A stretch of 35,589 nt of DNA from Candidatus Limnocylindria bacterium (lineage in GTDB: Bacteria > Chloroflexota > Limnocylindria > QHBO01), in contig JBDSIN010000143.1 of NCBI GenBank assembly GCA_039917955.1, forward strand, positions 1 through 35,589, read 5' to 3'. The notes under the pieces were generated by a model, which saw only the letters and a program-made list of their open reading frames with translations, ran no database searches and was not told the DNA's origin. Below, one piece after another: positions 569 to 23,592 of the stretch (positions are counted from its first letter, which is position 1; each line of letters starts with the position of its first letter). The position numbers and the translations under genes are program-made.

Positions 569-619
569 CTTGAGCGAATCTTGAGATGAACTTGCCTCCA
601 GTCCGCATTGCGTCTTGAG
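569..619. promoter_or_regulatory. Phased direct repeats CTTGAG / CTTGAG / CTTGCC (11-nt period) plus CTTGAG at 614
   Basis: cCTTGAGcgaatCTTGAGatgaaCTTGCCtcc at 569/580/591. The complement reads CTCAAG, so it is related to the CTCAG boxes elsewhere but in the opposite orientation. It lies between the kinase stop and the SHOCT operon. Confidence 0.35.
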
Positions 620-671
620 CGGCGGCGCCTACGGTGGTGACATCGGAACGCGTAGACGGAGGCAGCAGTCG

Positions 672-896
672 ATGATGGACGGGGCCTGGGGAATGACACT
701 GGGCGGCGGGATCTGGATGGTCATCTGGGTTGGCGCCCTGCTCCTGATGGTCGGGCTGCTGGTCGCCGGCGGGCGTCGCGTCGAGCGTGACGACCCGCTC
801 GACATCCTGCGCGGCCGGTACGCACGTGGAGAGATCAGTGAAGCGGAGTACCGCCACGCGCGGGAGCTCCTCAGCGAGCCAGGAGGCAACAGGTGA
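672..896 (+). CDS. SHOCT-domain membrane protein
   Basis: One TM helix (IWMVIWVGALLLMVGLLVAGG) followed by a SHOCT signature (ILRGRYARGEISEAEYRHARELL). ATG pair at 672/675. The stop overlaps the next start (GTGA). Confidence 0.7.
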   Translation: MMDGAWGMTLGGGIWMVIWVGALLLMVGLLVAGGRRVERDDPLDILRGRYARGEISEAEYRHARELLSEPGGNR

Positions 897-1102
897 GCAA
901 CAGAATCGTCGCGGGCGTCGCGGGCGTGGCCCTTGCGTTGGGCATCGTCGTGGGCGCGGCGGGCGCGATCGTGGTCCAGGACCGAACGACGCCGGGCACG
1001 GCCATCATGAACGGGATGCCGGCAGGCATGGGCGGCTCGATGATGGGCGGCTCGATGATGGGCGCTGGCATGCACGGCCAGTACCGCGGGAGCGATCGAT
1101 GA
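893..1102 (+). CDS. Small membrane protein with Met/Gly-rich tail (putative Cu(I)-binding tract)
   Basis: GTG at 893 lies 6 nt after AGGAGG. One TM helix, then MNGMPAGMGGSMMGGSMMGAGMHG. ATGA overlap with the next gene. Confidence 0.55.
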   Translation: MSNRIVAGVAGVALALGIVVGAAGAIVVQDRTTPGTAIMNGMPAGMGGSMMGGSMMGAGMHGQYRGSDR

Positions 1103-1572
1103 GCCGTCGGCGCGACACAGGCCGGCCGCAGCGGCACCGCGAGGAGCCGATCAGCGAGCAGCCGCCGCTCTGGCGCTACGGGCTGGCCGCGGTGGTGGTT
1201 GCAGGCGTGCTCGGTATCGGCGTCTACTTCGGCTTCAGCGACTTCTTCGGCAGACCGGATGCGGCAACTGCAGCTGTCATGCCGGTGCGCATGAGCATGG
1301 CCGGCTTCGAACCGCAGGTTATCACCGGCAAGGTCGGCGAGGCGTTGGAGGTTGAACTGTGGACCACCGATGCCGCCGTGCATCTCCAGGGCGGAGTGCA
1401 CACCCTCATCAGCGATGAACTGCGGGTCTACGTAGAGTTGCCGGCTGAGTCACGGCGCACGGTGACGCTGCAGATGCCCGCCACGCCTGGCGAGTACGAC
1501 ATCTATTGCGACACCTGCTGCGGCGGTAAGGAGAGCCCGACGATGCACGGCACCCTGCTGGTTGAGGCGTAG
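1099..1572 (+). CDS. Membrane-anchored cupredoxin-like (Cupredoxin_1/EfeO-N-like) protein with C-terminal YCDTCCGGKESPTMHG motif
   Basis: ATG at 1099 (ATGA coupling). TM helix LAAVVVAGVLGIGVYFGF. Beta-sandwich pattern MAGFEPQVITGKVGEALEVEL...PGEYDIYCDTCCGG...MHGTLLVEA. Paralog at 11753-12244. Confidence 0.75.
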   Translation: MSRRRDTGRPQRHREEPISEQPPLWRYGLAAVVVAGVLGIGVYFGFSDFFGRPDAATAAVMPVRMSMAGFEPQVITGKVGEALEVELWTTDAAVHLQGGVHTLISDELRVYVELPAESRRTVTLQMPATPGEYDIYCDTCCGGKESPTMHGTLLVEA

Positions 1573-1573
1573 G

Positions 1574-2697: not shown

Positions 2698-3378
2698 ATG
2701 AGTGAGGCCGCGCGCATCCTGGTCATCGACGACGATCCCAAGATCAGGGCGGTCGTGCGCCGCGGCCTGGCCTACGAGGGCTATCGCGTGGTCGAGGCGG
2801 GCAGCGGGGAGGAGGGGCTCGAGAAGGCCCGCGAGCATCTACCGGACCTGGTCGTCCTCGACATCATGCTGCCGGGCATGGACGGGTTGGAGGTCACGCG
2901 CCGACTGCGCTCTGCCGGTGACCAGGTCGCGATCCTGATGCTGACGGCGCGCGACCAGGTGACCGACCGGGTCGAGGGCTTGGAGACCGGCGCCGACGAC
3001 TACCTCGTCAAGCCGTTCAGCTTCGAGGAGCTTCTGGCCCGTGTCCATGCCCTGCTGCGGCGGCGAACCAGCCCCGCCGGCGAGACCCTGCGCTTCGCCG
3101 ACCTTGAGCTGGACGTCGACGCGCGCGAGGCACGCCGTGGCGCCCGCGTCGTCGAGTTGACCACCACCGAGTTCAACCTGCTCCTGCTGCTTCTGCGCCA
3201 CCCGCGCAAGGTGCTGACCCGCGACATCATCATGGAGCACGTATGGGCGTACGACTTCGACGGCGAGTCGAACGTACTGGAGGTATATGTTCGCTACCTG
3301 CGCAACAAGCTGGAAGCGAATGGCGAGTCCCGCCTGATCCAGACCGTCCGCGGGGCTGGCTACGTCCTCAAGGAGTGA
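2698..3378 (+). CDS. OmpR/PhoB-family response regulator
   Basis: Receiver domain (ILVIDDD...[13 protein letters not shown]...KPF) plus winged-helix output domain ([22 protein letters not shown]...VRGAGYVL). Confidence 0.95.
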
Positions 3379-4784
3379 TGCTCCTCCAGCGTCGGCGGCC
3401 AATCCGGACCCGGCTTGCGTTGATCTATGCCGGACTCCTTGCCGGCGCGCTCCTCGTCTTCGGCATTGGTGTCTTCGTCGTGCTGCGTGACGAGCTCGAG
3501 CGCTCGTTCGACGCCGCCCTGTTCGCGAATACGGAGCACGCCGCCGGCGCCTTCGCCCAGGATATCGACGCCGAGGGCCGCCTGAGCCCATCCGAGCGTC
3601 TCATCGAGCAGTTTGCCTCGACAGGCGGCCGCGTGCTGGTCCTTGATCTGGACGGCGGTGTGCTGGCCGATTCGGCGCCATCAGACTCCGGCAGGCTGCC
3701 ATTCACGCCCGACGACCTGGCCAGCGCCGACCACCACGCGCACGCGGTGCGCGAGCTCGCTGTCGACGATGACATCGTCCGGCTCTCCGTTGAGCCCGTG
3801 ATGCTCCCGAACGGGCAGGTCATCGGCTACGTGGCCTGGGCCGACTCGACGAGACCCTTGCGCGACCTGCTAGCGACTGTCGGCGGCGCGCTCGTAGTGG
3901 CCGGCCTGCTGGTGACCAGCCTGGCCATGATTGGCGGGCTCGCCCTCGCACGCCGCGCCCTGGCGCCGGTCGCCGACGTAACCGAGACGGCACGGGCGAT
4001 CTCGCTGTCGGGCGATTTCGCGGCTCGGGTCGACGCGGGCTCGCCGACAGACGAGGTTGGCGAGCTGGCAATTGCCTTCAACGAGATGCTCTCGGCGCTC
4101 GAGCAGAATCATCAGGCTCTGCAGCGCTTCCTCGGGGACGCGTCACACCAGTTGCGCACGCCGCTCACCACGATCCGAGCCAATTTGGACCTCGCGCAGC
4201 GGTCCGGGCTGCCGACGGAAGAGCGCCTCGCCATCCTCGCCGATGCCCGCGACGAGGCGGAACGGATGGGTCGCCTCGTCGGCGACCTTCTCTCGTTGGC
4301 CCGCGCTGAGTCCGGTGTACGGATCCGGGTTGAAGCGGTGGAACTCGACGCACTGCTGGTGGAGTCCGTCCGTCGACAGCGCGAGGCAGCCCCGCATGTG
4401 CGCATGAGCGTGGCCGCCGTTGAGCCTGCCATCGTCGACGGCGATCGCGACCGGCTGCACGAGCTGATCGGGATTCTTCTCGACAACGCGGCGCGCTACA
4501 CGCCGGCGGGAGGCAGCGTCGCGGTCAGACTCGCGGTGCGGGACGGGCGCGCGATCGTCCGGGTGGAAGACAGCGGCATCGGTCTCGACGAGCAGGACCG
4601 CGAGAGGGCCTTCGAGCGGTTGTACCGCGGATCGCGTGCTCGCGACCTGCGTCCGGGTGGCACGGGTCTGGGCCTGGCGATCGCACGCTGGATCGTTGAG
4701 TCACATGCCGGCACGATCGAGCTCACCGATCGCGAGGGCGGCGGAACGGTGGCGATCGTGACGCTGCCGATGCGTGCGTTGTGA
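3378..4784 (+). CDS. Sensor histidine kinase (2 TM, about 140-aa extracytoplasmic loop, HAMP, HisKA, HATPase_c)
   Basis: TGATG overlap with the regulator gene. H-box SHQLRTPLT, N-box LLDNAARYTP, G-boxes DSGIGL and GGTGLGLAI. The sensor loop contains DHHAHAV. Confidence 0.9.
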   Translation: MLLQRRRPIRTRLALIYAGLLAGALLVFGIGVFVVLRDELERSFDAALFANTEHAAGAFAQDIDAEGRLSPSERLIEQFASTGGRVLVLDLDGGVLADSAPSDSGRLPFTPDDLASADHHAHAVRELAVDDDIVRLSVEPVMLPNGQVIGYVAWADSTRPLRDLLATVGGALVVAGLLVTSLAMIGGLALARRALAPVADVTETARAISLSGDFAARVDAGSPTDEVGELAIAFNEMLSALEQNHQALQRFLGDASHQLRTPLTTIRANLDLAQRSGLPTEERLAILADARDEAERMGRLVGDLLSLARAESGVRIRVEAVELDALLVESVRRQREAAPHVRMSVAAVEPAIVDGDRDRLHELIGILLDNAARYTPAGGSVAVRLAVRDGRAIVRVEDSGIGLDEQDRERAFERLYRGSRARDLRPGGTGLGLAIARWIVESHAGTIELTDREGGGTVAIVTLPMRAL

Positions 4785-4896: not shown

Positions 4897-5130
4897 ATGA
4901 ACGCCGGAAGCGCAGTCAGGATCCCCGTCCACGGCCTCGGTTGCGGTGGCGGCGGCGCGACGACGATCGAGCGCGAGCTGGCCCGTGCGGCCGGCGTTTT
5001 GCGGTCGTACGTCAACCCGGCCACCGAGACGGCGTACATCGAATACGACCCCGTCCAGACCGACGCCGGGCGCCTGGCGCAGGTTATCGAGCACGCGGGC
5101 TACCGACCCGGACCCGCGTCGGAGGCGTGA
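4897..5130 (+). CDS. HMA-fold (heavy-metal-associated-like) protein with degenerate metal loop
   Basis: Ferredoxin-like HMA pattern VRIPVHGLGCGGGGATTIERELARAAGVLRSYVNPATETAYIEYDP...VIEHAGY. The usual GMTCxxC loop is replaced by GLGCGGGG, leaving a single Cys. Confidence 0.7.
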   Translation: MNAGSAVRIPVHGLGCGGGGATTIERELARAAGVLRSYVNPATETAYIEYDPVQTDAGRLAQVIEHAGYRPGPASEA

Positions 5131-5133
5131 GCG

Positions 5134-6231
5134 GTGCTTCTGGCCCGCCGCAACCTGCTCCACGACCGAACCCGGTTCGCGCTGAGTGTCCTGGGTGTCG
5201 CCGTCTCGATCGGGCTCATCCTGCTGCTCTCCGGCTATCGTTCGGGCGTCTATCAACAGTCCTCCGCGTACCTCGACAATACGCCCGGCAGTGTGGTGGT
5301 GGCCGAGCGCGGAATCCGCGACTTTCTTGGGACGGCCTCAGTCCTGCCGCCGGGCGCGGAGCAGACCGCCCGCGAGCGCCCCGGTGTCGACGGCGTGATC
5401 CCGGTGGTGTCGCAGTTCGTCATCTTCGAGCGCCACGGCCGCAAGGACGGCTTCTTCCTGATCGGTTACGACCCCGCGGCGGGTGGCGGCCCGTGGCGAC
5501 TGGTCGACGGGCGCGAACCGGCCGCTGACGACGAGCTGGTCATCGACCGCACGACGGCCGCCCAGCACGAGATCGCCATCGGAGATCAGGTCCGGGTGCT
5601 GGACCGCGACGCGACCGTGGTCGGCCTATCGGATGAGACGACCTTCTGGGCCGGCTCGGTCGCCTTCGCCCGGATCACCACGCTCGAGTCGTTGCTGCGC
5701 GCTCCGGGCCTGCGCAGCTTCCTGCTTGTGAGCCCGGCCGCCGGGGTGAGCCCGGAAGCGCTCCGCGACCAGCTCGCCCTGCCGGGAACGGAGGTGCTCC
5801 TGAAGAGCGAGATCATCGCCAACGACCGGCAGTTGATGGCGCGGGTGTACGACGCGCCGATCGGGTTGATGGTTGGCATCGCCTTCCTCGTGGGAGTGCT
5901 GGTGGTGGGGCTCGTCATCTATACCGCCACCATCGAGCGACGGCGGGAGTACGGGGCGGTCAAGGCCATCGGCGCCAGCAACCGGACACTGTACCGGGTG
6001 GTGACCACGCAGGCGCTTATCGCGACGGTCGCCGGAGCGGTAGTCGGGGTAGGGCTGGCCTACGGCGGCGGTGCCGCGCTGATGACCTGGCGGCCGCAGT
6101 TCCTGGTGGCCATCGAGCCGGCCGCCGTCGGCGTCGTCCTGGGCAGCAGCCTGCTGATGGCGCTGCTGGCCGCCCTGATCCCGGCCCGGGCGATGGCCCG
6201 CCTGGAGCCGGCCGAGGTCTTCCGGGGATGA
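5134..6231 (+). CDS. FtsX/MacB-type ABC permease (half-transporter 1)
   Basis: N-terminal ARRNLLHDRTRFALSVLGVAVS helix, a large extracytoplasmic loop and a C-terminal FtsX bundle (ERRREYGAVKAIGASNRTLY). GTG lies 8 nt after GGAGG. Confidence 0.85.
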   Translation: MLLARRNLLHDRTRFALSVLGVAVSIGLILLLSGYRSGVYQQSSAYLDNTPGSVVVAERGIRDFLGTASVLPPGAEQTARERPGVDGVIPVVSQFVIFERHGRKDGFFLIGYDPAAGGGPWRLVDGREPAADDELVIDRTTAAQHEIAIGDQVRVLDRDATVVGLSDETTFWAGSVAFARITTLESLLRAPGLRSFLLVSPAAGVSPEALRDQLALPGTEVLLKSEIIANDRQLMARVYDAPIGLMVGIAFLVGVLVVGLVIYTATIERRREYGAVKAIGASNRTLYRVVTTQALIATVAGAVVGVGLAYGGGAALMTWRPQFLVAIEPAAVGVVLGSSLLMALLAALIPARAMARLEPAEVFRG

Positions 6232-7358
6232 GCGCAGCGTGGGTCCTGGCCCGTCGCAACCTGGCCGGCAACCGGGTCCGGCTGCTGGTCTCGGTCGGTA
6301 GCGTCGCCCTCGCCCTGTCGCTGACGATCGCGTTCGACGCGATCTTCGCCGGGGTCGCGAACCAGCTGACGAAATATGTCGATCGGGCCGGCGCGGACGT
6401 GTGGGTCGCCCAGGCCGGCGTGCGCAACCTCCACATGGTGGCCTCCTGGCTGCCCGCCTCGGTGACCGGTGCCGTCAATGCCGTCGACGGCGTGGCCGAA
6501 GTGACCCCCATCCTGTACTCGACCGATACCATCGCCGCCGGCAACGATCGAGCGGTCGCGTACGTCATCGGGCTGCCGGCCGACGCGGCCATGGGCATGC
6601 CGTGGAACGTCGTCGACGGAGCGGACCGACCAGGCCCCGGCGAGGTGATCGTCGACCGCGGCTTCGCCAGCAAGGCCGGCGTCTCCATCGGCGATGACGT
6701 CACCGTCCTCGGCGGCGAGGCGCGGGTGGTCGGCCTGTCGAGCGGAACGGCCAGCCTGGTGAACTCGGTGGCCTTCGTCTCGTTCGAGGACTTTCAGACC
6801 ATGCGCGGCGGCGCCCCGGTCGTGAGCTTCGTCCTGGTCAGGGTCGTTTCCGGCGCCTCGCCGCAGGAAGTCGCCGCCGAGATCGAGCGCGTGGTCCCGG
6901 GTGTGACCGCCCAGTCGCGCGCCGCCTTCGCGGTCGAGGAGCGGCGATTGGTGATGGACATGAGCGCCGACGTCATCGCCATCGTGAACGCCGTGGGCTT
7001 CGCCGTCGGGCTGGCCGTGGTGGCGCTGACCGTCTACGTCGCCACGCTCGCCCGCCGGCGTGAGTACGGTGCCCTCAAGGCGCTCGGCGCGCACAATCGC
7101 TTCCTGTACGGGGTGGTGCTGAGCCAGGCCGTCCTGAGCGTCGCGCTCGGCTTCGTCGTGGGCCTCGCCTTCACCGAACTGATCAGCCTGGCGATTGCAG
7201 GGACCGATCTCAATCTCGAACTTGCCATCAGTGCCCCGTCGCTCGCCAAGGTCGGACTGTTCGCGGCGGTCATCGCCGGTCTCGCCGCGATCCTGCCCAT
7301 CCGCCAGATAGCGAGTCTCGACCCGGCGGTCGTCTTCCGAAAAGGAGCCGCACTGTGA
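6228..7358 (+). CDS. FtsX/MacB-type ABC permease (half-transporter 2)
   Basis: ARRNLAGNRVRLLVSVGSVAL helix and RRREYGALKALGAHNRFLY motif. ATGA overlap upstream and GTGA overlap downstream. Confidence 0.85.
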   Translation: MSAAWVLARRNLAGNRVRLLVSVGSVALALSLTIAFDAIFAGVANQLTKYVDRAGADVWVAQAGVRNLHMVASWLPASVTGAVNAVDGVAEVTPILYSTDTIAAGNDRAVAYVIGLPADAAMGMPWNVVDGADRPGPGEVIVDRGFASKAGVSIGDDVTVLGGEARVVGLSSGTASLVNSVAFVSFEDFQTMRGGAPVVSFVLVRVVSGASPQEVAAEIERVVPGVTAQSRAAFAVEERRLVMDMSADVIAIVNAVGFAVGLAVVALTVYVATLARRREYGALKALGAHNRFLYGVVLSQAVLSVALGFVVGLAFTELISLAIAGTDLNLELAISAPSLAKVGLFAAVIAGLAAILPIRQIASLDPAVVFRKGAAL

Positions 7359-8251
7359 CAACTCTGACGCTCGACGTGCGCGACGTCACCAAGCGCTTCG
7401 GTGACGGCGAGACCGCGGTGACCGCCGTTCGTGGGGTCACCCTCGCCGTCGACCCGGGCGAGGTCGTCCTGATCATGGGTCCATCGGGCTCGGGCAAGAC
7501 GACACTGCTGTCGATGATGGGCGCTCTCCTGCGGCCGACATCCGGCTCGATCCACCTCGACGGGACCGAGATCAGCGCCCTCTCCGAGGCTCGCCTGCCC
7601 GCTATCCGGCTGCGTCAGTTCGGGTTCATCTTCCAGGACTTCAACCTGCTGTCGGCCCTGTCGGTCCGTGAGAACGTGGCACTCGTCGCCGAGCTGGCGG
7701 GCCTCAGCGGACGTGCGGCGCGGGACAAGGCAAGCGCGCTGCTTACCGAGCTGGGCCTCGGCGAGCGGCTCGACTTCCTGCCGGAGAAGCTGTCGGGTGG
7801 AGAGAAGCAGCGGGTGGCGATCGCCCGGGCGCTGATCAACGATCCGACGCTCATCCTGGCCGACGAGCCAACCGCCAACCTCGACTCAAAGATCGGGCAC
7901 GAGATCATGCGCCTGCTGCGGCGCATTGCCAAGGACCAGGGACGCAGCGTGGTCATCGTCAGCCACGACCAGCGCATCCGTGACATCGCCGACCGCGTGC
8001 TGTGGCTCGAGGATGGCGCCTTCAAGGACATGGTGACGATGGCCACCGACCCGGTGTGCGGCATGGCGGTCGAGCGCGAGCGGGTGGTCAGCGGGAGTCG
8101 GGACGGGGAGACCTACTTCTTCTGCTCGAACGGCTGTCGGGCCGAATTCCTCGCCGCCGATGGGCAGGGGCCGCGGAACTGGATCCGGGCGGCGTCCGCG
8201 CTCATCTCACGACACACCACTCCAACCGGTGGTCGCCGCGGTCGCGACTGA
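7355..8251 (+). CDS. ABC transporter ATP-binding protein (MacB/LolD-like) fused to a C-terminal YHS/TRASH metal-binding domain
   Basis: Walker A GPSGSGKTT, signature LSGGEKQRVAIARAL, Walker B LILADEPT. The C-terminal DPVCGMAVE...YFFCSNGCRAEF (about nt 8045-8155) matches the YHS pattern. Confidence 0.9.
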   Translation: MTTLTLDVRDVTKRFGDGETAVTAVRGVTLAVDPGEVVLIMGPSGSGKTTLLSMMGALLRPTSGSIHLDGTEISALSEARLPAIRLRQFGFIFQDFNLLSALSVRENVALVAELAGLSGRAARDKASALLTELGLGERLDFLPEKLSGGEKQRVAIARALINDPTLILADEPTANLDSKIGHEIMRLLRRIAKDQGRSVVIVSHDQRIRDIADRVLWLEDGAFKDMVTMATDPVCGMAVERERVVSGSRDGETYFFCSNGCRAEFLAADGQGPRNWIRAASALISRHTTPTGGRRGRD

Positions 8252-8669: not shown

Positions 8670-9311
8670 ATGATGACCTTCGGGAGTGGATCCTTCGGGG
8701 ACTGGATCATGATCCTTGTGCCCATCGCGCTCGTCGTCGGGGTCGTTCTGATCGCGCTCTGGGCGGTCCGGCTCCTGGGCGGGGGTGCCGAGGACGACGC
8801 GCTCCGTCAGCTCCGGGCCAGGTTCGCGCGGGGCGAGATCGAGGCGCCGCAGTTCGAAGAGATGCGACGGGCCCTCGAGGCGACGGACGGACCGCGAACG
8901 GGTCGAAGCGCCCTCGGCATCGTCGGACTCGTCCTCGTCGTGGGGGCCATCCTCCTCGGCACCGCCGCCGGCTGGGGTGGGACGACCGGGCCGGGCTGGG
9001 GCGGGATGATGGGACCCGGCGGGATGATGGGCTGGGGACCCGCCCCCACCGCCCCGGCGGGGACCTCCGTGCGCATGGCCGGGTCGCGGTTCGAGCCGGC
9101 GACGCTGACCATCGCCCCGGGCGCGACCGTACGCTGGTTCAACGACGACGCCCTGCCGCACACCGTCACCGCCTCCGACGGCTCGTGGGACTCGGGCAAC
9201 CTCTCGCCCGGAGGCTCCTACGAGCGTCGCTTCGACTCACCGGGCACGTACGCGTATCTCTGCCGCTACCACCCGGGCCAGGCCGGCTCGATCGAGGTTC
9301 GGGCGCCCTGA
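8670..9311 (+). CDS. TM-SHOCT-TM-Met/Gly-rich-cupredoxin fusion protein (type-1 copper site with putative axial Gln)
   Basis: SHOCT motif LRARFARGEIEAPQFEEMRRAL, Met/Gly tract GWGGMMGPGGMMGWG, and plastocyanin/amicyanin-like ligands PHTV...YLCRYHPGQ. Confidence 0.8.
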   Translation: MMTFGSGSFGDWIMILVPIALVVGVVLIALWAVRLLGGGAEDDALRQLRARFARGEIEAPQFEEMRRALEATDGPRTGRSALGIVGLVLVVGAILLGTAAGWGGTTGPGWGGMMGPGGMMGWGPAPTAPAGTSVRMAGSRFEPATLTIAPGATVRWFNDDALPHTVTASDGSWDSGNLSPGGSYERRFDSPGTYAYLCRYHPGQAGSIEVRAP

Positions 9312-10556: not shown

Positions 10557-10765
10557 TGGCCGCCGTGCTGTTCCGGCTCGCGTTGCTGGCGACCGGCCTG
10601 GGCGTGACGGAGATCGGTCTCGGCAACGCGCTGGCCGCAGGATCGCCGTGGGGCTGGGCGCTCGTCCTTTTCCTCGGGCTCCCGCTGATCGTCGCCGGCT
10701 CCGCGGGCTTCATGGTCACGCTTCTTGGCGGAAGCAAGCAGAAAGGCAGATCCACCGATGCGTAG
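10556..10765 (+). CDS. Small 2-TM membrane protein (hypothetical)
   Basis: TGATG coupling to the cytochrome b gene, with AGGAGG upstream. Hydrophobic sequence AAVLFRLALLATGLGV...WALVLFLGLPLIVAGSAGFMVTLLGG. Confidence 0.45.
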   Translation: MAAVLFRLALLATGLGVTEIGLGNALAAGSPWGWALVLFLGLPLIVAGSAGFMVTLLGGSKQKGRSTDA

Positions 10766-13923: not shown

Positions 13924-14745
13924 GTGCCGTTCGTCATCGACATCGACCCGATCGCCTTCTCGGTGCTCGGCCTTCACGTGCGGTGGTACGGGATCATCGT
14001 CGCCGGCGCGGCCGCGGTCGCAGTGTGGTTGACCATGCGTGAGGCGCGTCGCCGCGGCATCGGTTCGGAAACGGTCTCAGATGCCGCGATTTGGGCGGCG
14101 GTGGCAGCGCTCGTCGGTGGGCGAGCGCTGTACGTTGCCCAGAACGAGCTCGGCACGCTGGGCGAGGATCCAGCGCACCTGTTCATGGTCTGGAACGGCG
14201 GTCTCTCCTTCTACGGCGGGTTGCTCGGCGCCCTGCTCGCCCTGCTCGTCTTCGCCCGGCGGAGCGGAATCGCCCTTCTGCCACTGCTGGACGTGGCCGC
14301 GCCGGCCGCGGCGATCGGCCAGGCCATCGGGCACATCGGCTGCCTGATCGGCGGCGACTCGTATGGGATCCCCACCGACCTGCCCTGGGCGGTCGTCTAT
14401 CGAAACGTGGATGCCATGGCGCCGGTTGGCGTGCCGCTGCACCCCACGCAGGCGTACGAGGCGGTCCTGCTGGCCGCACTGTTCGCCGGGCTCTGGCTCG
14501 GCCGCGAGCGCCTGGCGCGGATCGGGGAGGGGGCGGTCGCCGCCACCTACCTTGTCGGCCTGGCCGGCATCCGCTTCGGGCTCTTCTATCTGCGCGACGA
14601 GCCCAGCGTGCTCCTGGGGCTCAAGACCGCCCAGCTGATGGGACTCGGGATTGCGCTCCTGGCGATCGTCCTCTTCGTCGCCGCGCGCCGGCAGACGCGC
14701 TCCACTCCCATCGCCCATGCACAGCTGGAGGCCATTCGACCATGA
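13924..14745 (+). CDS. lgt: Prolipoprotein diacylglyceryl transferase
   Basis: RWYGIIVA, WNGGLSFYGGLLGALLA, GHIGCLIGGDSYG and HPTQAYEA. GTG start after GGGGAG. Confidence 0.9.
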   Translation: MPFVIDIDPIAFSVLGLHVRWYGIIVAGAAAVAVWLTMREARRRGIGSETVSDAAIWAAVAALVGGRALYVAQNELGTLGEDPAHLFMVWNGGLSFYGGLLGALLALLVFARRSGIALLPLLDVAAPAAAIGQAIGHIGCLIGGDSYGIPTDLPWAVVYRNVDAMAPVGVPLHPTQAYEAVLLAALFAGLWLGRERLARIGEGAVAATYLVGLAGIRFGLFYLRDEPSVLLGLKTAQLMGLGIALLAIVLFVAARRQTRSTPIAHAQLEAIRP

Positions 14746-15203
14746 CAACCCACGTTCACGACCCCTCGATCGAGGCTCCTGACGGCGGCGGCAGCAGTTC
14801 CGCAGCCATCAGGCGACCTGACCCGGCCATCGCTCGACCGCGATGGCTCCTGCCCGCCCTCGCGGCCGTTGTGGTGGCCACGGGCCTGGTCGTCGCCGGC
14901 GTCGTCTCGGCTTCGACCGTGCTCTCGGTTGCGCTGTTCGGCGGTATGCTGCTGATGCATCTCGGGGGTCACGGCCACGGCGGGCATGGCGGGCATGGCG
15001 GGCATGGAGAGGCCGGACCCGGAGGCCACGGCGGGCACGACGAGCGAGGGGTAGTCCGCGACGAGGATCTCAGCGGGGGCTCAGGTGGCTCTCAGTCTGC
15101 GCGGCCAGGCTTCAATGACGGGCCCGATGACCGAGCCTCGGAGGATCAGAACCGCAACGAGACAACCGACCGTGACCAGCACCCTTCACACACCTGCCAC
15201 TGA
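14742..15203 (+). CDS. DUF2933-like His-rich membrane protein
   Basis: ATGA coupling to lgt. Two TM helices, then [30 protein letters not shown]. The 3' tail overlaps site S7 and the copA 5' end. Confidence 0.6.
15069..15095 (+). promoter_or_regulatory. Phased CTCAG box (site S7), immediately upstream of copA
   Basis: CTCAGcgggggCTCAGgtggctCTCAG, three perfect pentamers at 15069/15080/15091. Candidate copA ATGs at 15115 and 15127. Confidence 0.5.
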
Positions 15204-17307
15204 TTCCGCCGCGACCACGAGCGGCCACCACGGGGCCGCGGCCACGCATCACCCGGCGGCCGTGACTGCCCCTGCGGGCTCGCCGGCGCACGACCGCCAC
15301 GCCGAGTACCGCACGCTGATGCGCAAGTGGTGGTTCGGCGCGGCGGTCGGCGTGCCAACCATGATCCTCTCCTACCCGTGGCTCTTCCCCGGGCTGCGGG
15401 ACGCCTTCCCGCGCGGAGGCGTTGCCCTGTGGTGGCTGTGGGTCGCCATGGGCATCGCTTCGCTGGCCGTGCTGGTCTACTCGGGCGGCCAGTTCTTTAC
15501 CGGGGCCTGGGAGGCGCTCAGGCACCGCTCCGCGAATATGCACACCCTGATCGCGATCGGCACCGGAACGGCCTGGCTCTACTCGACCGTGGCCCTGCTG
15601 CTCCCGCAACTCTTCCCATCGGCCGAGATGACCGATGTCTACTACGACGTGACCGTCGTTGTCACCGCCCTGGTCGGGCTCGGCATGGCCATGGAGGTGA
15701 AGGCCCGCGGCCGGACCAGCCAGGCAATCGAGAAGTTGATCGGCCTGGCGCCCAAGATGGCACGCGTCGTCCGCGACGGGGTCGAGCTCGAGGTCCCCGT
15801 CGAGGAGGTTGTGGTCGGAGACACGGTCGTTGTGCGCCCCGGGGCGAAGATCCCGGTCGACGGCGTCATCACCGACGGGGTGTCGGCGGTCGACGAGTCG
15901 ATGATCACCGGCGAGTCGATGCCGGTCGAGAAGCGAGCCGGCGACGAGGTCATCGGAGCCACCATCAACAAGACCGGCGCCTTCCGCTTCAGGGCCACCA
16001 AGGTCGGGGCGGACACGACGCTGGCTACGATCGTGCGCATGGTCGGCGACGCGCAGGCCTCAAAGGTGCCGATCCAGCGCATCGTGGACGTCGTCTCGGG
16101 CTACTTCACGCCCGCGGTGATGATCCTCGCCGTGGCTGGCTTCGTGATCTGGTACGACTTCGGCCCGGCTCCGGCCTTCGCCTACGCCACCATCGTGGCG
16201 GTCACCAGCCTGATCATTGCCTGCCCCTGTGCCCTGGGCATGGCCACGCCCATGGCGCTGACCACCGGCGTCGGTCTGGCAGCTTCCAACGGGATCCTGA
16301 TCCGTTCCGGTGACGCCCTCCAGGCGGCCAAGCGGATCGACACCATCGTCCTCGACAAGACCGGCACCATCACCCTCGGCAAGCCCGCCGTGACCGATGT
16401 CGTCGTGGCAGACGGCTTCGAGGCCGATGCCCTGCTGGCCCTGGCGGCGGCCGCGGAGCGCGACTCCGAGCACCCGCTGGCGGCGGCGATCGTGGAAAGT
16501 GCGGCCGAGCGCGGCTTCGCCAGGCTCGAGCCGACGAGCTTCGAGGCCGTCCCCGGGTACGGTATCCGGGCGCTTCTCGGCGAGCAGCGGGTACTGGTTG
16601 GCAAGCGTGCCTTCCTGGAGGCCGAGGAGATCTCCGTTGGCGCCCTCGAGGAGGACGCATCCCGCCTGGCCGACGAGGGCAAGACGCCGGTATTCGTCGC
16701 AGTCGACGGCCGAGCCGCGGGGGTGGTTGCCATTGCCGATCCGGTGAAGCCGGACTCCCGAGGGGCGATCGCCGCCCTTCGCCGCCTTGGCCTCCAAGTC
16801 GTGATGATCACGGGCGACAACCACCGCACCGCGGACGCCATCGCGCGCCAGGTCGGGGTCGACCGGGTGCTGGCAGAAGTCCTGCCTGTAGACAAGGCTT
16901 ACGAGGTCCGCAAGCTCCAGCTCGAGGGCCGGACCGTGGCCATGGTCGGCGACGGCATCAACGACGCCCCAGCGCTGGCGCAGGCCGACGTCGGCTTCGC
17001 GATCGGCACCGGCACCGATGTCGCCATCGAGGCCTCGGATATCACCCTGATCTCCGGCAGCCTCCACGGCGTGGTCTCGGCGATCGCCATCAGTCGCGCC
17101 ACGATGCGCAACGTCTACCAGAACCTGTTCGGCGCCTTCGCTTACAACAGCCTCGGGCTGCCGGTGGCGCTCGGCGTCCTCTATCCGTTCATCGGGCTCC
17201 TGCTCAGCCCGCTCCTGGCCGCGCTGGCCATGAGCTTCAGCTCGGTGACTGTCATCTCGAATGCCAATCGGCTCAAGCACTTCAAGCTCGTGGAGGTGGC
17301 GGCATGA
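15115..17307 (+). CDS. copA: Cu(I)-translocating P1B-1-type ATPase lacking an N-terminal HMA domain
   Basis: [44 protein letters not shown] and MSFSS. The N-terminus is His-rich ([13 protein letters not shown]...HDRH) and has no GMTCxxC. Start is uncertain (15085 GTG, 15115 ATG or 15127 ATG). Confidence 0.9.
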
Positions 17308-18081: not shown

Positions 18082-18447
18082 GTGAGCATCGTGGTCCGGG
18101 CGGCCAGGACCATGGCCGCCGCACTGAGCGGCGCGGTGGGTGCCATCTCGGGCATTGCGCCCCACGTCCTGCACCACGTCGGGCCGCTGGCCGGGGCCGC
18201 CTTCCTGGCAGGCGCCGGCGGGACTATCCTATTTGGCCTCGCCGGCTTCGCCCTGTCGGTCCCGATGCTGTTGCGCCTGCGCCGACGCTTTGGCACCTGG
18301 GCCGCGCCGGCGGTCGCCAGCGCCCTGTTCACCGCCATCTACCTGGTGAGCGCGCTCGTGGTCGGTCCAGCCCTGACGGCGAATCCGATCACCGTCGATG
18401 CGCCCGCTTCGAGCCCGTCGCCCTCCGGCCACGCCGAACATCACTGA
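18082..18447 (+). CDS. Membrane protein with HVLHH and C-terminal HAEHH motifs (hypothetical)
   Basis: About 3 predicted TM helices. GTG start is uncertain (an in-frame ATG lies about 30 nt downstream). Confidence 0.5.
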   Translation: MSIVVRAARTMAAALSGAVGAISGIAPHVLHHVGPLAGAAFLAGAGGTILFGLAGFALSVPMLLRLRRRFGTWAAPAVASALFTAIYLVSALVVGPALTANPITVDAPASSPSPSGHAEHH

Positions 18448-19696: not shown

Positions 19697-20174
19697 CGGT
19701 TCGAGGCTTCGCTCGGTACGACACGGCCGGCTCCGTTGGACCATTGGCCTGATTGGCGCGGCGCTCCTGATCTTGACCCAGGCAGGTTGCGTCGGTTCGA
19801 TGGGTCCGATGGGTCCGATGGGTCCGATGCATCCCGGCATGCACGGCCCTGGCGGTGGGAGCCAAGACGATGCCCCATCGCCAGTTCCGGGAGCTCCCGA
19901 ACTGGTCGCCACGGCCACGGAGTTCGCCTTCGAACCCGGTGAGCTGCGGATTCGCGTCGGCACGACCGTCAACCTCACGCTCGTCAACCGCGGTCAGCTC
20001 TACCACGACCTGAGCATCAGCGACCTTGGATTCGTCCTTACCGCCGATCCCGGTGACACCGCCAGCGGTGCCGTGACGGTCGCCGACGTCGGCCGATTCA
20101 GGTTCGTGTGCAGCGTGCCGGGGCACGCCGAGGCGGGGATGACTGGCACCCTGGTGGTCGAGGCGGAATTCTGA
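19686..20174 (+). CDS. Met-rich cupredoxin (type-1 copper site), probable lipoprotein
   Basis: Signal peptide ending LILTQAGC. MGPMGPMGPMHPGMHGPGG tract. Copper ligands YHDL...FVCSVPGHAEAGM. Confidence 0.8.
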   Translation: MRADGSRLRSVRHGRLRWTIGLIGAALLILTQAGCVGSMGPMGPMGPMHPGMHGPGGGSQDDAPSPVPGAPELVATATEFAFEPGELRIRVGTTVNLTLVNRGQLYHDLSISDLGFVLTADPGDTASGAVTVADVGRFRFVCSVPGHAEAGMTGTLVVEAEF

Positions 20175-20190: not shown

Positions 20191-20679
20191 CTACTCGACG
20201 ACGGGATACCCGAGGGCTCGCCAGGCGTTCATCCCGCCGTCGAGGTTCCACACGTTCGTAAAGCCGGCGGCGACCAGGGTGCGGGCAGCGATGGCGCTCA
20301 TCGAGCCGCTGCGGCAGTACAGCACGATCTTGGCCCCGAGCGGGGGCAGCTCAGCCAGCCGGCCGTCCATCCGGTCGAACGGAATGAACAGGTCCGTCGG
20401 GGCAATCTCGCCGTCATACGGTATGTGGACGTTGACCAGGGTGAAGTCCTTCGCCTCAAGCATGTCGGCCAAGCGGGCGGCGGTGATGTCGAGGTAGCTG
20501 CCTCCGCCGTCCACCGGCACGCGGACGTCGGTGTCAGCCGCGGGCTGGGAACCGCAGGCGGCCAGGAGGACCGCCAGCAGCAACCCGAGCGCCGCGTTGC
20601 CGCCCGACTTCCGCGTCAGGACGCGACGATCGTGATCGTACCGACCATGCCGGCCGCGTAGTGCCCGGTCAGGTGGCAC
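20191..20679 (-). CDS. Rhodanese-domain lipoprotein
   Basis: Lipobox LLAACGS and rhodanese active-site loop VLYCRSGSMS. No ATG is available. The start is GTG at 20679 (64-nt overlap with the upstream gene) or CTG at 20619 (cCTGA overlap with the upstream stop). Confidence 0.7.
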   Translation of the reverse strand: MPPDRALRGRHGRYDHDRRVLTRKSGGNAALGLLLAVLLAACGSQPAADTDVRVPVDGGGSYLDITAARLADMLEAKDFTLVNVHIPYDGEIAPTDLFIPFDRMDGRLAELPPLGAKIVLYCRSGSMSAIAARTLVAAGFTNVWNLDGGMNAWRALGYPVVE

Positions 20680-21128: not shown

Positions 21129-21175
21129 GGGGATCTCCAGGTTTGGGGTGTTATGTCCGTCGGAGCCCTGAACAG

Positions 21176-21189
21176 CTTGAACATTCAAG
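21176..21189. promoter_or_regulatory. AT-rich perfect palindrome CTTGAAcaTTCAAG (candidate operator)
   Basis: Perfect 6-2-6 inverted repeat about 50 nt upstream of the minus-strand ATG at 21128, in the 177-nt gap after copB. Confidence 0.3.
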
Positions 21190-21305
21190 GCAGATCCGGA
21201 TGGCGACCGACCAATCATCCCCCGGAATTGCCGGGGAGGCAAATGAGGTCAGGATCGGACGGCAGCGTCGTGGGGAACCATGTGGGTGACGACCGAAGGG
21301 AAAGC

Positions 21306-23417
21306 TCATGCCGATTGGGGCTCCGGCGCCAGCCGATCGGCGACGTCATCGGACCGCAGGCGCAGCCGACGCAGTAGCTGCGCATTCGCCGCGACCACGA
21401 TGGTTGAGATGCTCATGACCAGGGCGCCGATGCTCATCGGCAGGATCAATCCCCACGGCGCCAGCACGCCGGCTGCAACGGGGATAGCGATCACGTTGTA
21501 GCCGGTCGCCCAGACCAGGTTCTGGATCATCTTGCGGTAGGTGGCCCGCGAGAGATGAATGGCAGCGGCGACGTCGCGAGGGTCGTTGCGGACCAGAACG
21601 ATCCCTGCCGACTCGACCGCGACGTCGGTCCCGGCACCGATGGCGATGCCGACATCGGCCTGTGCAAGGGCCGGCGCGTCGTTCACCCCGTCGCCGACCA
21701 TCGCCACGCGAACTCCGCCGGACTGGAAGCGCATGACCGCGTCCGCCTTGTCGGCCGGCAACACTTGCGCTGCCACCTCGTCGATGCCGATGCGGCGTGC
21801 GACCGAGTCGGCCACGACCTGGGCGTCACCCGTGATCATGGCCACCCGAAGCCCCATCTTGTGCAGCCGCTGGACCGCCTCGACCGATTCAGGTCGGATC
21901 TCGTCCTCCACTGCGACGGCGCCGACCACCTCGGTCCCGTCGAGGACGTACAGCACGGTGCGCCCCTCCTGGTTCCAGCCGACGGCATGCGTCTCCAGTT
22001 CGGGCGGGATGGCGGCGCCGAGGTCTGCCAGGAGCCGAGGCCCGCCGACATGCACCTGGCGGCCATCGATGGTGGCTCGTGCGCCGCGGCCGGGCAGGGA
22101 TTCAAAGGTGGTGGCGCTCGCGGGGTCGATCCCTCGCAGTTGTGCACCGCGCACGACGGCTCGAGCCAGCGGGTGTTCGGAATCGGCCTCCACGGCCGCC
22201 GCAAGAGACAGCATCTGCCCCTCGTCGATGCCAGCTGCGGCGGCGACCGCGGCCAAAACTGGCTCGCCGCGGGTGAGAGTGCCGGTCTTGTCAAAGATGA
22301 TCACCTGCAGGTCCTTTGCCCGCTCCAGGGCCAGCCGGTCCTTGACCAGGAGGCCGTTGCGGGCACCGAGGGTCGTGCTGATGGCAACCACCAGCGGAAT
22401 CGCGAGCCCAAGGGCGTGGGGGCAGGCGATGACCAGGACCGTGGCGGTGCGAATCAGGGCATCCTCTGGCTGGCCGACCGCGATCCACACGGCGAGGGTC
22501 ACAACGCCGGCAGCCAGGGCGACGAAGAAGAGCAGGGCAGCGGCCCGGTCCGCCAGGATCTGGGCGCGCGATTGGGAGGCTTGGGCTTCTGCGACCAGCC
22601 GCATGATTCCCGACAGCGCCGTCTGCTCCCCAACCGCGGTGACCCGCACCCGCAGGCTGCCGCCGGCGGCGACGGTGCCGGCCACGACCTTGTCGCCGGG
22701 CTCCTTGGTCACGGGGCGCGACTCGCCGCTGATCATCGACTCGTCCACGTCTGCCGCGCCGTCGGATACCTCGCCATCGGCCGGCACGCGGGTACCGGGA
22801 CGCACCAGCACGATGTCACCGAGTCGAAGGTCGCGCAGTGGCACCGTCTCAACCTGACCATCGGTCACGCGCTCGGCGGTATCGGGCAGCAGCTCCGCCA
22901 GGGCATTGAGAGCCCCCTGGGCCTGCATGATCGAGCGCATCTCGAGCCAGTGGCCGAGGCTCATGACCGTGATCAGGGTGGCCAGCTCCCACCATACGTC
23001 GACCGCGAACACGCCGAGCGTGGCGGCCCAACTGGCGGCGAACGCGACGACGATTGCCAGGCTGATCAGGGTCATCATCCCGGGGAGTCGATCCGACAAC
23101 TCCGTCCGCGCACCGACCAGGAACACCCTGCCGCCGTAGGCGAAGACCACCGTGCCCAGCGCCGCAGGAATCCATTCAGAGCCCAAGAAGGTTTGAGCCG
23201 TGTACCCGAGCCACATCTGGACCTCGGCGCTCCAGAAGACGACGGGAACGGTTAGCAGCAGGACGACCCAGAACTGCCGCCGGAAAACCTGCGGATCGTG
23301 ACCGGCATGCTTGCTGTGTGCGGTATGCCCACCGTGCTCACCGCCGGCCGGTGGCGCCTGGTGCGAAGCGACAGACGCCTCGGGCTCGTGATGCTGAACG
23401 TGTTCGGCGTGGTCCAT
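21306..23417 (-). CDS. copB: P1B-3-type (CopB-like) copper ATPase with His-rich N-terminus
   Basis: VIACPHALGLAIP (CPH), SGESRPV, DKTGTLT, GDGVNDAP, GYNVIAIP and MSIST. N-terminus MDHAEHVQHHEPE...GGEHGGHTAHSKHAGHD. ATG at 23417. Confidence 0.9.
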   Translation of the reverse strand: MDHAEHVQHHEPEASVASHQAPPAGGEHGGHTAHSKHAGHDPQVFRRQFWVVLLLTVPVVFWSAEVQMWLGYTAQTFLGSEWIPAALGTVVFAYGGRVFLVGARTELSDRLPGMMTLISLAIVVAFAASWAATLGVFAVDVWWELATLITVMSLGHWLEMRSIMQAQGALNALAELLPDTAERVTDGQVETVPLRDLRLGDIVLVRPGTRVPADGEVSDGAADVDESMISGESRPVTKEPGDKVVAGTVAAGGSLRVRVTAVGEQTALSGIMRLVAEAQASQSRAQILADRAAALLFFVALAAGVVTLAVWIAVGQPEDALIRTATVLVIACPHALGLAIPLVVAISTTLGARNGLLVKDRLALERAKDLQVIIFDKTGTLTRGEPVLAAVAAAAGIDEGQMLSLAAAVEADSEHPLARAVVRGAQLRGIDPASATTFESLPGRGARATIDGRQVHVGGPRLLADLGAAIPPELETHAVGWNQEGRTVLYVLDGTEVVGAVAVEDEIRPESVEAVQRLHKMGLRVAMITGDAQVVADSVARRIGIDEVAAQVLPADKADAVMRFQSGGVRVAMVGDGVNDAPALAQADVGIAIGAGTDVAVESAGIVLVRNDPRDVAAAIHLSRATYRKMIQNLVWATGYNVIAIPVAAGVLAPWGLILPMSIGALVMSISTIVVAANAQLLRRLRLRSDDVADRLAPEPQSA

Positions 23418-23440
23418 GGATCGGTCTCGCTGCGGTGGAC

Positions 23441-23470
23441 GGTACTCCCCCCCAGTATATGCCCAGGGGT
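23441..23470 (-). promoter_or_regulatory. Candidate copB promoter/operator (C/G tract flanked by TAC..GTA, TATACT -10-like hexamer)
   Basis: Plus strand reads GTACTCCCCCCCAGTATATGCCCAGGGGT. It resembles CsoR-type TAC-N9-GTA operators with G/C tracts. TATACT on the minus strand (23454-23459) lies 37 nt upstream of the ATG. Confidence 0.25.
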
Positions 23471-23592
23471 CAAGGCGATGCCGGACAGGTGCGGGAAGGC
23501 GTGATCGGCCGGGACACCGAAACCCCGCCGCGCAGTGCGCGACGGGGTTTCCCGAGGGTCGGTTCCCGCGCTGGTGGGCGCAGGCGGCGCCC

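Follow-up and report, generated by a model that had tools for sequence, protein, structure and literature searches.

The stretch of DNA analysed here, 35,589 nucleotides of contig JBDSIN010000143.1 from a Candidatus Limnocylindria assembly (hereafter the window), contains copper-handling operons over about 23 kb, which form a real and unusually dense set and belong to an uncultured soil or freshwater bacterium of the Chloroflexota. The clearest new lead of the cluster is a pair of adjacent genes, here named cupA and ccdL, in which a gene for a CuA-like cupredoxin directly precedes a gene for a CcdA-like membrane protein. The pair is present twice, as cupA1-ccdL1 and cupA2-ccdL2, and its strictness is the most interesting regularity of the region, absent from an original prediction made from the DNA letters alone. 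It is possible, and is put forward tentatively, that cupA-ccdL represents an undescribed bacterial and archaeal module, in which a three-cysteine CcdA-type protein would directly service an anchored CuA-like cupredoxin, either by thioredoxin-free reduction or by a transmembrane Cu(I) relay. The four genes are as follows.

1099-1572, plus strand: cupA1, CuA-like cupredoxin, membrane-anchored, predicted to face outward, C-x2-CC-GG...M; Cupredoxin_1 32.2 bits
1574-2449, plus strand: ccdL1, CcdA-like membrane protein with three Cys (NPC and CTVPC); 45% identity to ccdL2; weak NCBIfam DsbD match over the membrane region
11753-12244, plus strand: cupA2, CuA-like cupredoxin, membrane-anchored, predicted to face outward, C-x2-CC-GG...M; Cupredoxin_1 41.7 bits
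12244-13113, plus strand: ccdL2, CcdA-like membrane protein with three Cys; AlphaFold2 model, Foldseek match to CcdA 5VKV

Open reading frames (ORFs) were selected by third-position G+C, overlap and homology; Pfam was scanned with every substantial ORF and NCBIfam with key ORFs only. The Pfam gathering cut-offs are 27 bits for Cupredoxin_1, 21.2 bits for Copper-bind and 27.1 bits for DsbD_TM (PF02683).

Conservation of the cupA-ccdL pair

Relatives of ccdL were sought in a scan of one genome per species, which gave at least 445 matching stretches, and the 78 loci retained come mainly from Chloroflexota and also from Rokubacteria/Methylomirabilota (NC10), Gemmatimonadota (including Longimicrobiales) and Methanoperedens archaea. 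First, the gene order is fixed, with cupA immediately upstream of ccdL in all 73 loci that have at least 600 bp of upstream DNA, at gaps of -18 to 166 bp. Next, the invariant residues across 76 cupA sequences include two His, the motif C-x2-CC-GG and one Met, a His2-Cys3-Met set, while cupA1 and cupA2 are 39% identical to each other. Finally, three cysteines are invariant in ccdL, in NPC and C-T-x-P-C, whereas canonical CcdA and DsbD have two. The Pro-Cys cysteines of ccdL, one in each pseudo-repeat (transmembrane helices TM1 and TM4), are invariant as NPC and VPC, and the third invariant Cys (C204 in ccdL2) stands four residues before the second of them. Apart from an additional N-terminal helix, the protein is a membrane domain alone.

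The AlphaFold2 model of cupA2 has a predicted local distance difference test (pLDDT) score of 84.8, above 90 in the domain, and its best Foldseek matches are mostly CuA domains. Like the CuA domains of cytochrome oxidase subunit II and nitrous-oxide reductase (NosZ), cupA has a cupredoxin fold, and the first His, the Cys-x3-Cys and the Met of the NosZ domain are kept in the alignment with cupA2. In contrast, cupA has no counterpart of the second His, gains an extra Cys (C-x2-CC) and carries another invariant His seven residues before the first, so that the CuA ligand set H...C-x3-C-x3-H-x2-M is replaced in cupA by H...C-x2-CC-GG-x5-M. Also unlike the known CuA domains, cupA is a stand-alone anchored domain outside any oxidase or reductase.

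The assignment of ccdL to the DsbD/CcdA superfamily follows a less direct route. NCBIfam gave nothing usable as a direct assignment of ccdL1 or ccdL2, while relatives about 43% identical to the ccdL of the window pass DsbD_TM with 29.8-31.4 against 27.1 bits over model positions 3-203 of 219. Since only the relatives pass the threshold, membership of ccdL in DsbD_TM is transitive. The AlphaFold2 model of ccdL2 (pLDDT 74.9) has a sole high-probability Foldseek match, CcdA 5VKV, with a probability of 0.99 and an E-value of 0.033.

Among 1.84 billion representative proteins, 2272 relatives of ccdL were found at E<=1e-10, and many of these are longer, 350-600 residues, with the three-Cys membrane domain preceded by an outward domain carrying a Cys motif, which is either YYNEACxxC, belonging to no Pfam family, or DUF1573 with CxC. 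In sequence, such fusions of a Cys-motif domain to the membrane domain correspond to the architecture of DsbD and ScsB. A reading of the 350-600-residue proteins as cupA-ccdL fusions was rejected, their N-terminal domains being other Cys-motif domains. Examples of fused relatives are P0377, P0379, P0384, P0387, P0378, P0391, P0450 and P0494; the last two have only two membrane Cys and an N-terminal CxxC region, which in P0450 matches Pfam Thioredoxin, followed by FN3-type repeats.

The surroundings of the pair are less uniform than the pair itself. A thioredoxin-like ORF lies within 4 kb of ccdL in just 4 of 69 loci, and no WCxxC thioredoxin-like ORF was found in the window. Of the 53 loci of at least 12 kb, 40 contain another copper marker within 10 kb and 23 an Lgt-family gene within 10 kb of the pair. 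In a Methylomirabilota locus (L063, 10724-12340) a true Lnt gene is directly downstream of ccdL, and in a Methylomirabilota genome a cytochrome c gene is upstream of the pair; in a Longimicrobiales locus (L048, 7538-8095, 8611-9249 and 11790-12524) the pair sits between genes for a redoxin, for a YHS protein and for a CcdA of the canonical type (52.7 bits); and in Methanoperedens (L079, 8133-8564 and 10692-11171) a CcmH-like gene and one with a PCYCGC motif lie at the flanks of the pair. A full-text literature search for a cupredoxin with CcdA or DsbD returned no description of the cupA-ccdL pair.

The copper cluster and its origin

Besides the two pairs, the copper cluster and the genes interspersed in it comprise the following features.

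1-507, plus strand: sensor histidine kinase, 3' end, truncated by the window edge; Pfam HATPase_c 97.7 bits; part of the module response regulator-histidine kinase-SHOCT-cupA1-ccdL1
672-896, plus strand: small SHOCT membrane protein with Met-rich N-terminus; Pfam SHOCT 33.3 bits; kept upstream of cupA1 in related loci
908-1102, plus strand: small single-helix membrane ORF, C-terminal end MGGSMMGGSMMGAGMHG, start codon uncertain; third-position G+C 0.82
2698-3378, plus strand: OmpR-type response regulator, heavy-metal type (CopR/CusR-like); Pfam match; NCBIfam cztR_silR_copR 239.6 bits, below the cut-off of 279
3375-4784, plus strand: sensor histidine kinase, heavy-metal type (CopS/CusS-like); HAMP, HisKA, HATPase_c; cztS_silS_copS 201 bits, below the cut-off of 292
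4897-5130, plus strand: HMA-fold protein with degenerate metal motif GLGCGGGG (one Cys, not CxxC); Pfam HMA 33.1 bits
5134-8251, plus strand: MacB/DevCA-type ABC exporter, with permeases at 5134-6231 and 6228-7358 and an ATPase with C-terminal YHS at 7355-8251; MacB_PCD, FtsX, ABC_tran, YHS 37.2 bits
8670-9311, plus strand: cupC, with a transmembrane helix, cytoplasmic SHOCT, a second transmembrane helix, GMMGPGGMM linker and predicted outward plastocyanin-like domain; Copper-bind 33.1 bits, SHOCT
9468-10556, plus strand: cytochrome b; Cytochrome_B, Cytochrom_B_N_2; best NCBIfam matches ExtP and cytochrome b6
10556-10765, plus strand: 69-residue membrane ORF after cytochrome b; the trio with cytochrome b and the 174-residue gene is kept in L001, L002 and other loci
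10758-11282, plus strand: 174-residue secreted protein with C-terminal anchor, third member of that trio
11409-11756, plus strand: CsoR/RcnR-family regulator without the Cys-His-Cys Cu(I) triad; Trns_repr_metal 37.8 bits
13191-13382, plus strand: 63-residue two-helix membrane ORF with Met-rich loop; L001 and L002 have an ORF of 62-63 residues in the corresponding position
13385-13915, plus strand: cupB1, CupA-like cupredoxin without signal peptide, C-terminal anchor, C...CxMxR; Cupredoxin_1 45.9 bits
13924-14745, plus strand: Lgt1, altered catalytic signature GHIGCLIGGDSYG; Pfam LGT 190.5 bits; TIGR00544 144.5 against 118.9
14742-15203, plus strand: 153-residue membrane protein with His-rich 11-residue tail, its ATG overlapping the Lgt1 stop (ATGA); L001 and L002 have an ORF of 134-146 residues in the corresponding position
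15115-17307, plus strand: CopA, P1B-1 Cu(I) ATPase, CPC, His-rich N-terminus, without HMA, start codon uncertain; NCBIfam TIGR01511
17304-17687, plus strand: cupB2, CupA homologue, N-terminal anchor, C...CxMxM; Cupredoxin_1 65 bits
17687-17947, plus strand: TRASH/YHS-type four-Cys metal-binding protein; TRASH_HVO_1752_C 34.4 bits
18112-18447, plus strand: 111-residue membrane protein (TM121 in the module below), His motifs HVLHHV and HAEHH; no Pfam match; copies 76-80% identical in L001, L006, L016, L024, L032 and L061
18518-19696, plus strand: Lgt2, divergent, N-terminus longer by about 160-180 residues according to the start codon, motif GRLGCFFTGCCAGR; Pfam LGT 64.6 bits
19686-20174, plus strand: cupD1, type-1 copper protein, probable lipoprotein, MGPMGPMGPMHPGMHG tract; Cupredoxin_1 31.1 bits, Copper-bind 28 bits
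20616-21128, minus strand: cupD2, CopI-like lipoprotein, lipobox LAAC, internal His/Met-rich loop, His-Cys-His-Met; Copper-bind 39.6 bits
21306-23417, minus strand: CopB, P1B-3-type ATPase, CPH, His-rich N-terminus; NCBIfam copper-ATPase 569 bits against 397

Most of these parts are of known types, namely CupA/CopA, CopB, CopI-like proteins, a heavy-metal two-component system and TRASH/YHS proteins, while the rest are further conserved parts. The original prediction had read 600-23500 as a copper and redox island with seven cupredoxin-fold ORFs, two P1B ATPases, two CcdA-like and two Lgt-family genes, and this inventory is borne out, for the CcdA-like genes by an indirect route. All seven cupredoxin ORFs score above the Pfam gathering thresholds (the one it placed at 20616 begins there by its 3' end, the gene being on the minus strand), and the outcome that it had named as refuting, the assignment of most of them to unrelated families, did not occur, since all seven match cupredoxin Pfam families. 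Both ATPases, with the His-rich N-termini described, exceed the NCBIfam copper-ATPase cut-off, both Lgt genes are found by Pfam, and the announced thiol-redox membrane proteins are present as members of the DsbD/CcdA superfamily. The four recurrent metal-binding tracts of low complexity were all located (MGGSMMGGSMM at 1028-1060, GMMGPGGMM at 9003-9029, MGPMGPMGPM at 19800-19829 and the His-rich 11-residue tract at 14976-15008), two of them in ORFs that had not been listed, 908-1102 and 14742-15203. Likewise, no multicopper oxidase, CusCBA or CopC/D had been recognised, and the Pfam scans gave no above-threshold match to any of them among the ORFs of 1-23.7 kb. The small conserved membrane ORFs (908-1102, 13191-13382, 14742-15203, 10556-10765 and 18112-18447) are easily overlooked by automatic annotation; a Met- or His/Gly-rich loop or tail is found in 908-1102, 13191-13382 and 14742-15203 and is absent from 10556-10765.

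The seven cupredoxins fall into four kinds, of which the A kind (cupA1 and cupA2) belongs to the pairs. The B kind, cupB1 and cupB2, whose genes flank copA, is homologous to Streptococcus pneumoniae CupA, with E-values of 1.6e-18 for cupB2 against CupA and 2.1e-9 against the CopA metal-binding domain 4F2F, and of 1.8e-12 for cupB1 against CupA (2MRY/4F2E). The CupA ligands Cys74, Cys111, Met113 and Met115 are fully aligned in cupB2 (C...CQMGM) and partly in cupB1 (C...CGMGR), where an Arg replaces the second Met. Basic residues follow the N-terminal helix of cupB2, and cupB1 has a C-terminal anchor and no signal peptide; because of this charge distribution and the absence of a signal peptide both domains probably face the cytoplasm and are hence no envelope device, as is also the case for CupA, which acts inside the cell and chaperones Cu(I) to CopA (PMC5646241). 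The idea of an envelope strategy based on tethered cupredoxins is retained for five of the seven, which are predicted to be tethered outside, but not for cupB1 and cupB2.

The single member of the C kind, cupC, matches plastocyanin, amicyanin and halocyanin models in NCBIfam, and its gene directly precedes those of cytochrome b, the 69-residue ORF and the 174-residue anchored protein; the order cupC-cytochrome b recurs in L007. In the D kind, cupD1 and cupD2 have signal peptides and segments rich in Met and His, their type-1 His-Cys-His-Met site is complete, and the lipobox is canonical in cupD2 and weaker in cupD1. The ligand pattern, as read from the sequence, is H...C-x4-H-x4-M with DMAGGGMAGMGH in cupD2 and H...C-x3-H-x4-M with MGPMGPMGPMHPGMHG in cupD1. 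The best PDB matches of cupD2 are auracyanin and plastocyanin, and the best NCBIfam models of both proteins are those of CopI, with 118.4 and 72.1 bits for cupD2 and 50 bits for cupD1, all of them far below the CopI equivalog cut-offs of 280 and 200 bits. The cupredoxin-like protein CopI contributes to copper tolerance and is of importance at low oxygen (PMC13308877).

The two ATPases are of different subtypes, as CopA has a CPC motif (ACPCALG; TIGR01511 584.5 against 397 bits) and CopB a CPH motif (ACPHALG), with the N-terminus MDHAEHVQHHEPE...HGGHTAHSKHAGHD in the latter, and Pfam detects an HMA domain in neither. The best NCBIfam models for the ABC exporter are DevA/DevC, and a block of HMA, two MacB and ABC/YHS genes recurs beside copper genes elsewhere; a LolCDE reading of this two-permease system was considered but not adopted, the closest models being DevA/DevC and MacB, with LolD in second place for the ATPase. 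Lgt1 aligns over its full length with Escherichia coli Lgt 5AZB (E 1.4e-25), while Lgt2 reaches 32.9 bits with TIGR00544, below the cut-off of 118.9. The E. coli signature GRLGNFINGELWG aligns with GHIGCLIGGDSYG of Lgt1, and H103 of the E. coli enzyme is replaced by Tyr in Lgt1; an alignment of 18 homologues shows the motif GRLGCFFTGCCAGR of Lgt2 with a conservation of at least 90%, and both paralogues have a Cys at the position of E. coli Asn146. The two may be specialised, copper-adapted or repurposed enzymes.

In a tblastn comparison of 25 window proteins with 80 loci, several modules were found to recur. One, present in many loci, is response regulator-histidine kinase-SHOCT-cupA1-ccdL1; others are the response regulator and histidine kinase with HMA-MacB-MacB-ABC/YHS, (cupredoxin)-cytochrome b-small ORF-174-residue protein, and cupD with CopB. 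The longest is CsoR-like-cupA2-ccdL2-small ORF-cupB1-Lgt1-(His-rich ORF)-CopA-cupB2-TRASH-(TM121)-(Lgt2)-(cupD). The window joins all of these modules, whose order is shuffled among related genomes. Its segment at 9.5-19.7 kb is collinear with contigs of three related metagenome-assembled genomes (L001, L006 and L016) at about 71-82% nucleotide identity, and the nearest relatives of the window proteins are metagenome-assembled Chloroflexota, many of them labelled Candidatus Limnocylindria. Cupredoxin genes number 1-5 in each of the 37 stretches fetched that span 18 kb or more, with five in six of the stretches, so seven cupredoxins in 20 kb is a normal density for the lineage. The density that the original prediction had called exceptional is more than chance, given that the 12 kb following on the right are free of cupredoxins, and is striking against model organisms, but it is typical within the lineage, where the core is collinear in other metagenome-assembled genomes.

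The word island had also implied boundaries, and these were not found. The G+C content of the window is about 69% and stays at 0.65-0.72 throughout without a compositional break, the sole tRNA, a tRNA-Arg at 33863, lies about 10 kb beyond the copper cluster and does not flank it, and Pfam identified no integrase or transposase among the ORFs scanned. A recently acquired mobile metal-resistance island would agree with the shuffling of modules between related genomes and with the occurrence of the pair in several bacterial phyla and in archaea, which implies past transfer; nonetheless, the flat composition, the position of the tRNA, the lack of mobility genes and the collinearity of the core in genomes of the same lineage led us to reject this explanation as highly improbable. 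As ccdL also has no match in 72,556 plasmids, the cluster looks native rather than recently acquired.

Intergenic signals are few. A promoter and terminator scan of the window gave a result no better than shuffled sequences, and a search for intergenic inverted repeats revealed no shared operator, its only yield being a hairpin behind cupD1 and a palindrome ahead of copB. The hairpin (20194-20244, 14-bp stem) is located just past the cupD1 stop between the convergent cupD1 and cupD2 and is a probable terminator. The near-perfect palindrome of 16+16 nt at 23519-23551, GAAACCCCGCCGCGCA T TGCGCGACGGGGTTTC, lies between the stop of a minus-strand ORF (23593-24441) and the copB start and could be a terminator or an operator. 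Further right, long ORFs overlap on opposite strands at 24458-26656; the one on the minus strand contains a MalK-type ABC ATPase in its C-terminal half only and is opposed by a plus-strand ORF with a CAP domain (25670-26584), for which reasons it is probably over-extended at the 5' end. A second MacB-type ABC system (26622-29913; ATPase and an 871-residue duplicated permease) has no metal-binding domain and is apparently unrelated to the copper cluster, and 30550-33702 encodes a sigma-70 factor of the extracytoplasmic function (ECF) type followed by two Kelch-repeat beta-propeller proteins of 488 and 331 residues.

Electron relay, copper relay or maturation

The region probably constitutes a native copper-homeostasis supercluster of several operons in a host close to the uncultured class Limnocylindria. 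From the observed homologies, motifs, gene order and conservation we infer the topology, the copper responsiveness and every transfer step of the following model. Inside the cell, Cu(I) would be bound by the two membrane-tethered CupA-type cupredoxins and the TRASH protein and then passed to CopA, with CopB (CPH, His-rich N-terminus) as a second pump adding capacity. From general knowledge of the phylum the host presumably has no outer membrane to retain soluble proteins, and for this reason extracytoplasmic copper would be handled by membrane-fixed proteins, among which would be the CopI-like probable lipoproteins, small Met-/His-rich membrane peptides, the plastocyanin-like protein and the two CuA-like cupredoxins. 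By analogy with ScsB-ScsC-CueP, each CuA-like cupredoxin may be served by its own CcdA-type protein as an electron relay that keeps the cysteines reduced and copper-binding without a thioredoxin-fold intermediate, a proposal that we place just short of an even call; ccdL would carry reducing equivalents from the cytoplasm directly to cupA. DsbD-family ScsB acts in copper resistance, and Cu(I) is passed to CueP by ScsB/ScsC (PMC10907172). The heavy-metal two-component system probably senses the copper outside, and an atypical CsoR-family gene, the putative repressor, precedes the copA operon.

A number of observations weigh against this model. First, neither ccdL1 nor ccdL2 matches Pfam DsbD_TM directly, even at E<10, so the two predicted CcdA-like genes are upheld by relatives, the fold match and motifs rather than by a direct match; a profile of ten diverse ccdL members found no match among PDB sequences, and the TM-scores of ccdL2 with CcdA 5VKV are just 0.38 and 0.46, the comparison being with a nuclear magnetic resonance model. 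The topology calls come from the positive-inside rule as read by eye. Next, the pairs of distant lineages adjoin cytochrome-maturation and thiol-redox genes (CcmH, PCYCGC, cytochrome c, canonical CcdA) rather than copper pumps, and in some lineages cupA-ccdL may have a maturation role rather than one in detoxification. The third invariant Cys of both ccdL and cupA is superfluous for a plain dithiol relay and hints at metal binding. In the CsoR-like regulator, hand alignment places Phe and Glu where the Cu(I) triad, with positions as in M. tuberculosis CsoR, has its first Cys and its His; the one Cys present is not kept across 21 homologues, in contrast to H14 near the N-terminus. Finally, the canonical signature G-R-x-G-N-F-x-N-x-E-x-x-G is found in neither Lgt1 nor Lgt2. 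As the paralogues are without residues regarded as essential in E. coli Lgt (R143, N146, E151 and G154 of the signature), the lipoprotein maturation of the original prediction stands for the presence of Lgt-family genes but is shaky as to function.

The extra cysteines are central to a different explanation, by which cupA-ccdL moves copper and not electrons: the three Cys of ccdL would form a trigonal Cu(I) site exchanging with the Cys3 of cupA and carry Cu(I) through the membrane, in or out, in a manner similar to MerP-MerT. The three invariant Cys of ccdL (NPC and C-x3-C), against two in CcdA and DsbD, are matched by three in cupA, and no thioredoxin partner is nearby in 65 of 69 loci. To our knowledge, no DsbD-superfamily member translocates copper, and relatives have the same membrane domain fused to CxxC or thioredoxin domains, the classic architecture of an electron relay. 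ScsB itself, however, binds Cu(I) and delivers it to CueP in vitro (PMC10907172), and for a DsbD-family protein of an ammonia-oxidising archaeon that responds to copper limitation, Cu(I) binding or import has been suggested (PMC7785015). On balance, a copper relay appears rather unlikely.

It would also be conceivable, with still lower probability, that the cluster serves, partly or wholly, for electron transfer or for the maturation of cuproenzymes or cytochromes, the type-1 cupredoxins and cytochrome b forming an auracyanin-like respiratory branch and cupA-ccdL acting as an assembly factor for CuA or haem. The auracyanins and plastocyanins found for cupD2, the recurrent position of cupC before cytochrome b, the resemblance of cupA to CuA domains and the CcmH, cytochrome c, canonical CcdA and redoxin genes beside distant pairs are all consistent with such a role. 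Yet in the window and in its relatives these genes alternate with those of two copper-export ATPases, of CupA-type chaperones, of TRASH/YHS/HMA proteins and of regulators of the heavy-metal type, tracts rich in Met and His are a typical feature of resistance proteins that bind copper, for example CopI (PMC13308877), and Pfam scans of the window found no oxidase, Rieske protein or NosZ. The differing neighbourhoods of the distant pairs, one of which holds a canonical CcdA, argue that the pair is not simply a housekeeping CcdA.

Relation to known copper systems

While the layout had been predicted to be unlike any textbook copper-resistance system, this applies to the whole rather than to the parts: the cluster is without multicopper oxidase, CusCBA and CopC/D, but its CupA/CopA, CopI, CopB, CsoR-family and heavy-metal two-component modules are textbook elsewhere. 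The S. pneumoniae cop operon of CupA and CopA (4F2E, 2MRY, 4F2F; PMC5646241) shares with it the CupA homologues, the aligned Cys...Cys-x-Met, the membrane anchors and a CopA without HMA. In contrast, CopA of the window is also without a cupredoxin metal-binding domain and has just the His-rich N-terminus, two distinct CupA-like proteins are encoded, of which one is C-terminally anchored and has an Arg for the second Met, the regulator is of the CsoR family and not CopY, and a TRASH protein is added. The CopI proteins of Rubrivivax gelatinosus, Vibrio cholerae and Pseudomonas aeruginosa (PMC13308877) resemble cupD1 and cupD2 in the type-1 site, the His/Met-rich segments and the location beside copper pumps in a cluster without multicopper oxidase, whereas CopI is soluble and periplasmic and the cupD proteins are probable lipoproteins of a presumed single-membrane cell.

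The Salmonella Scs system (ScsB, ScsC/ScsD, CueP) likewise has a DsbD/CcdA-superfamily protein in a copper cluster beside an extracytoplasmic, Cys-bearing copper-binding protein that needs reduction, a part that cupA would play here. It differs in that ccdL is without the alpha and gamma periplasmic domains, has no local thioredoxin-fold partner and contains three membrane Cys instead of two, and in that the presumed client is a CuA-like cupredoxin and not CueP or ScsC; the pair does not qualify as a member of the Scs system, and the likeness is one of working principle. Reduction of a CuA site by this superfamily has a precedent, as CcdA with TlpA or ResA reduces the CuA cysteines of CoxB.

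Operons of the CsoR-copZ-copA type are known from Gram-positive bacteria (M. tuberculosis cso, Bacillus subtilis copZA), as are CopB P1B-3 ATPases. In the window a CsoR-family gene similarly heads an operon with a Cu(I) P1B-1 ATPase, and the second pump is CopB-like (CPH, His-rich N-terminus), but the regulator is without the Cys-His-Cys triad, no functional CopZ is present, and cupA, ccdL, cupB, an Lgt paralogue and small Met/His-rich peptides are inserted between regulator and pump. Like E. coli Lgt (5AZB), Lgt1 and Lgt2 are members of Pfam LGT, and with cupD2 the cluster has at least one clear lipoprotein; the signatures are altered in Lgt1 and Lgt2, however, and an N-terminal domain is added in Lgt2. 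Copper blocks lipoprotein acylation in E. coli (PMC6538781), and the conserved Lgt paralogues in copA operons provide a link to this effect.

Knowledge of copper handling comes mainly from proteobacteria and firmicutes, and the cluster shows a possible solution of an abundant uncultured soil and freshwater lineage, presumably one without an outer membrane. Within it, cupA-ccdL offers a precise and testable target, with a fixed gene order, six invariant Cys across both proteins and thousands of metagenomic relatives. If ccdL does reduce or metallate a cupredoxin directly, the known range of partners of the DsbD family would grow, and a possible answer would be at hand, for a CupA-like cupredoxin, to the open question of what re-reduces the Cys of pneumococcal CupA (PMC5646241). 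The cupA-ccdL pair would then represent a new route of extracytoplasmic copper handling.

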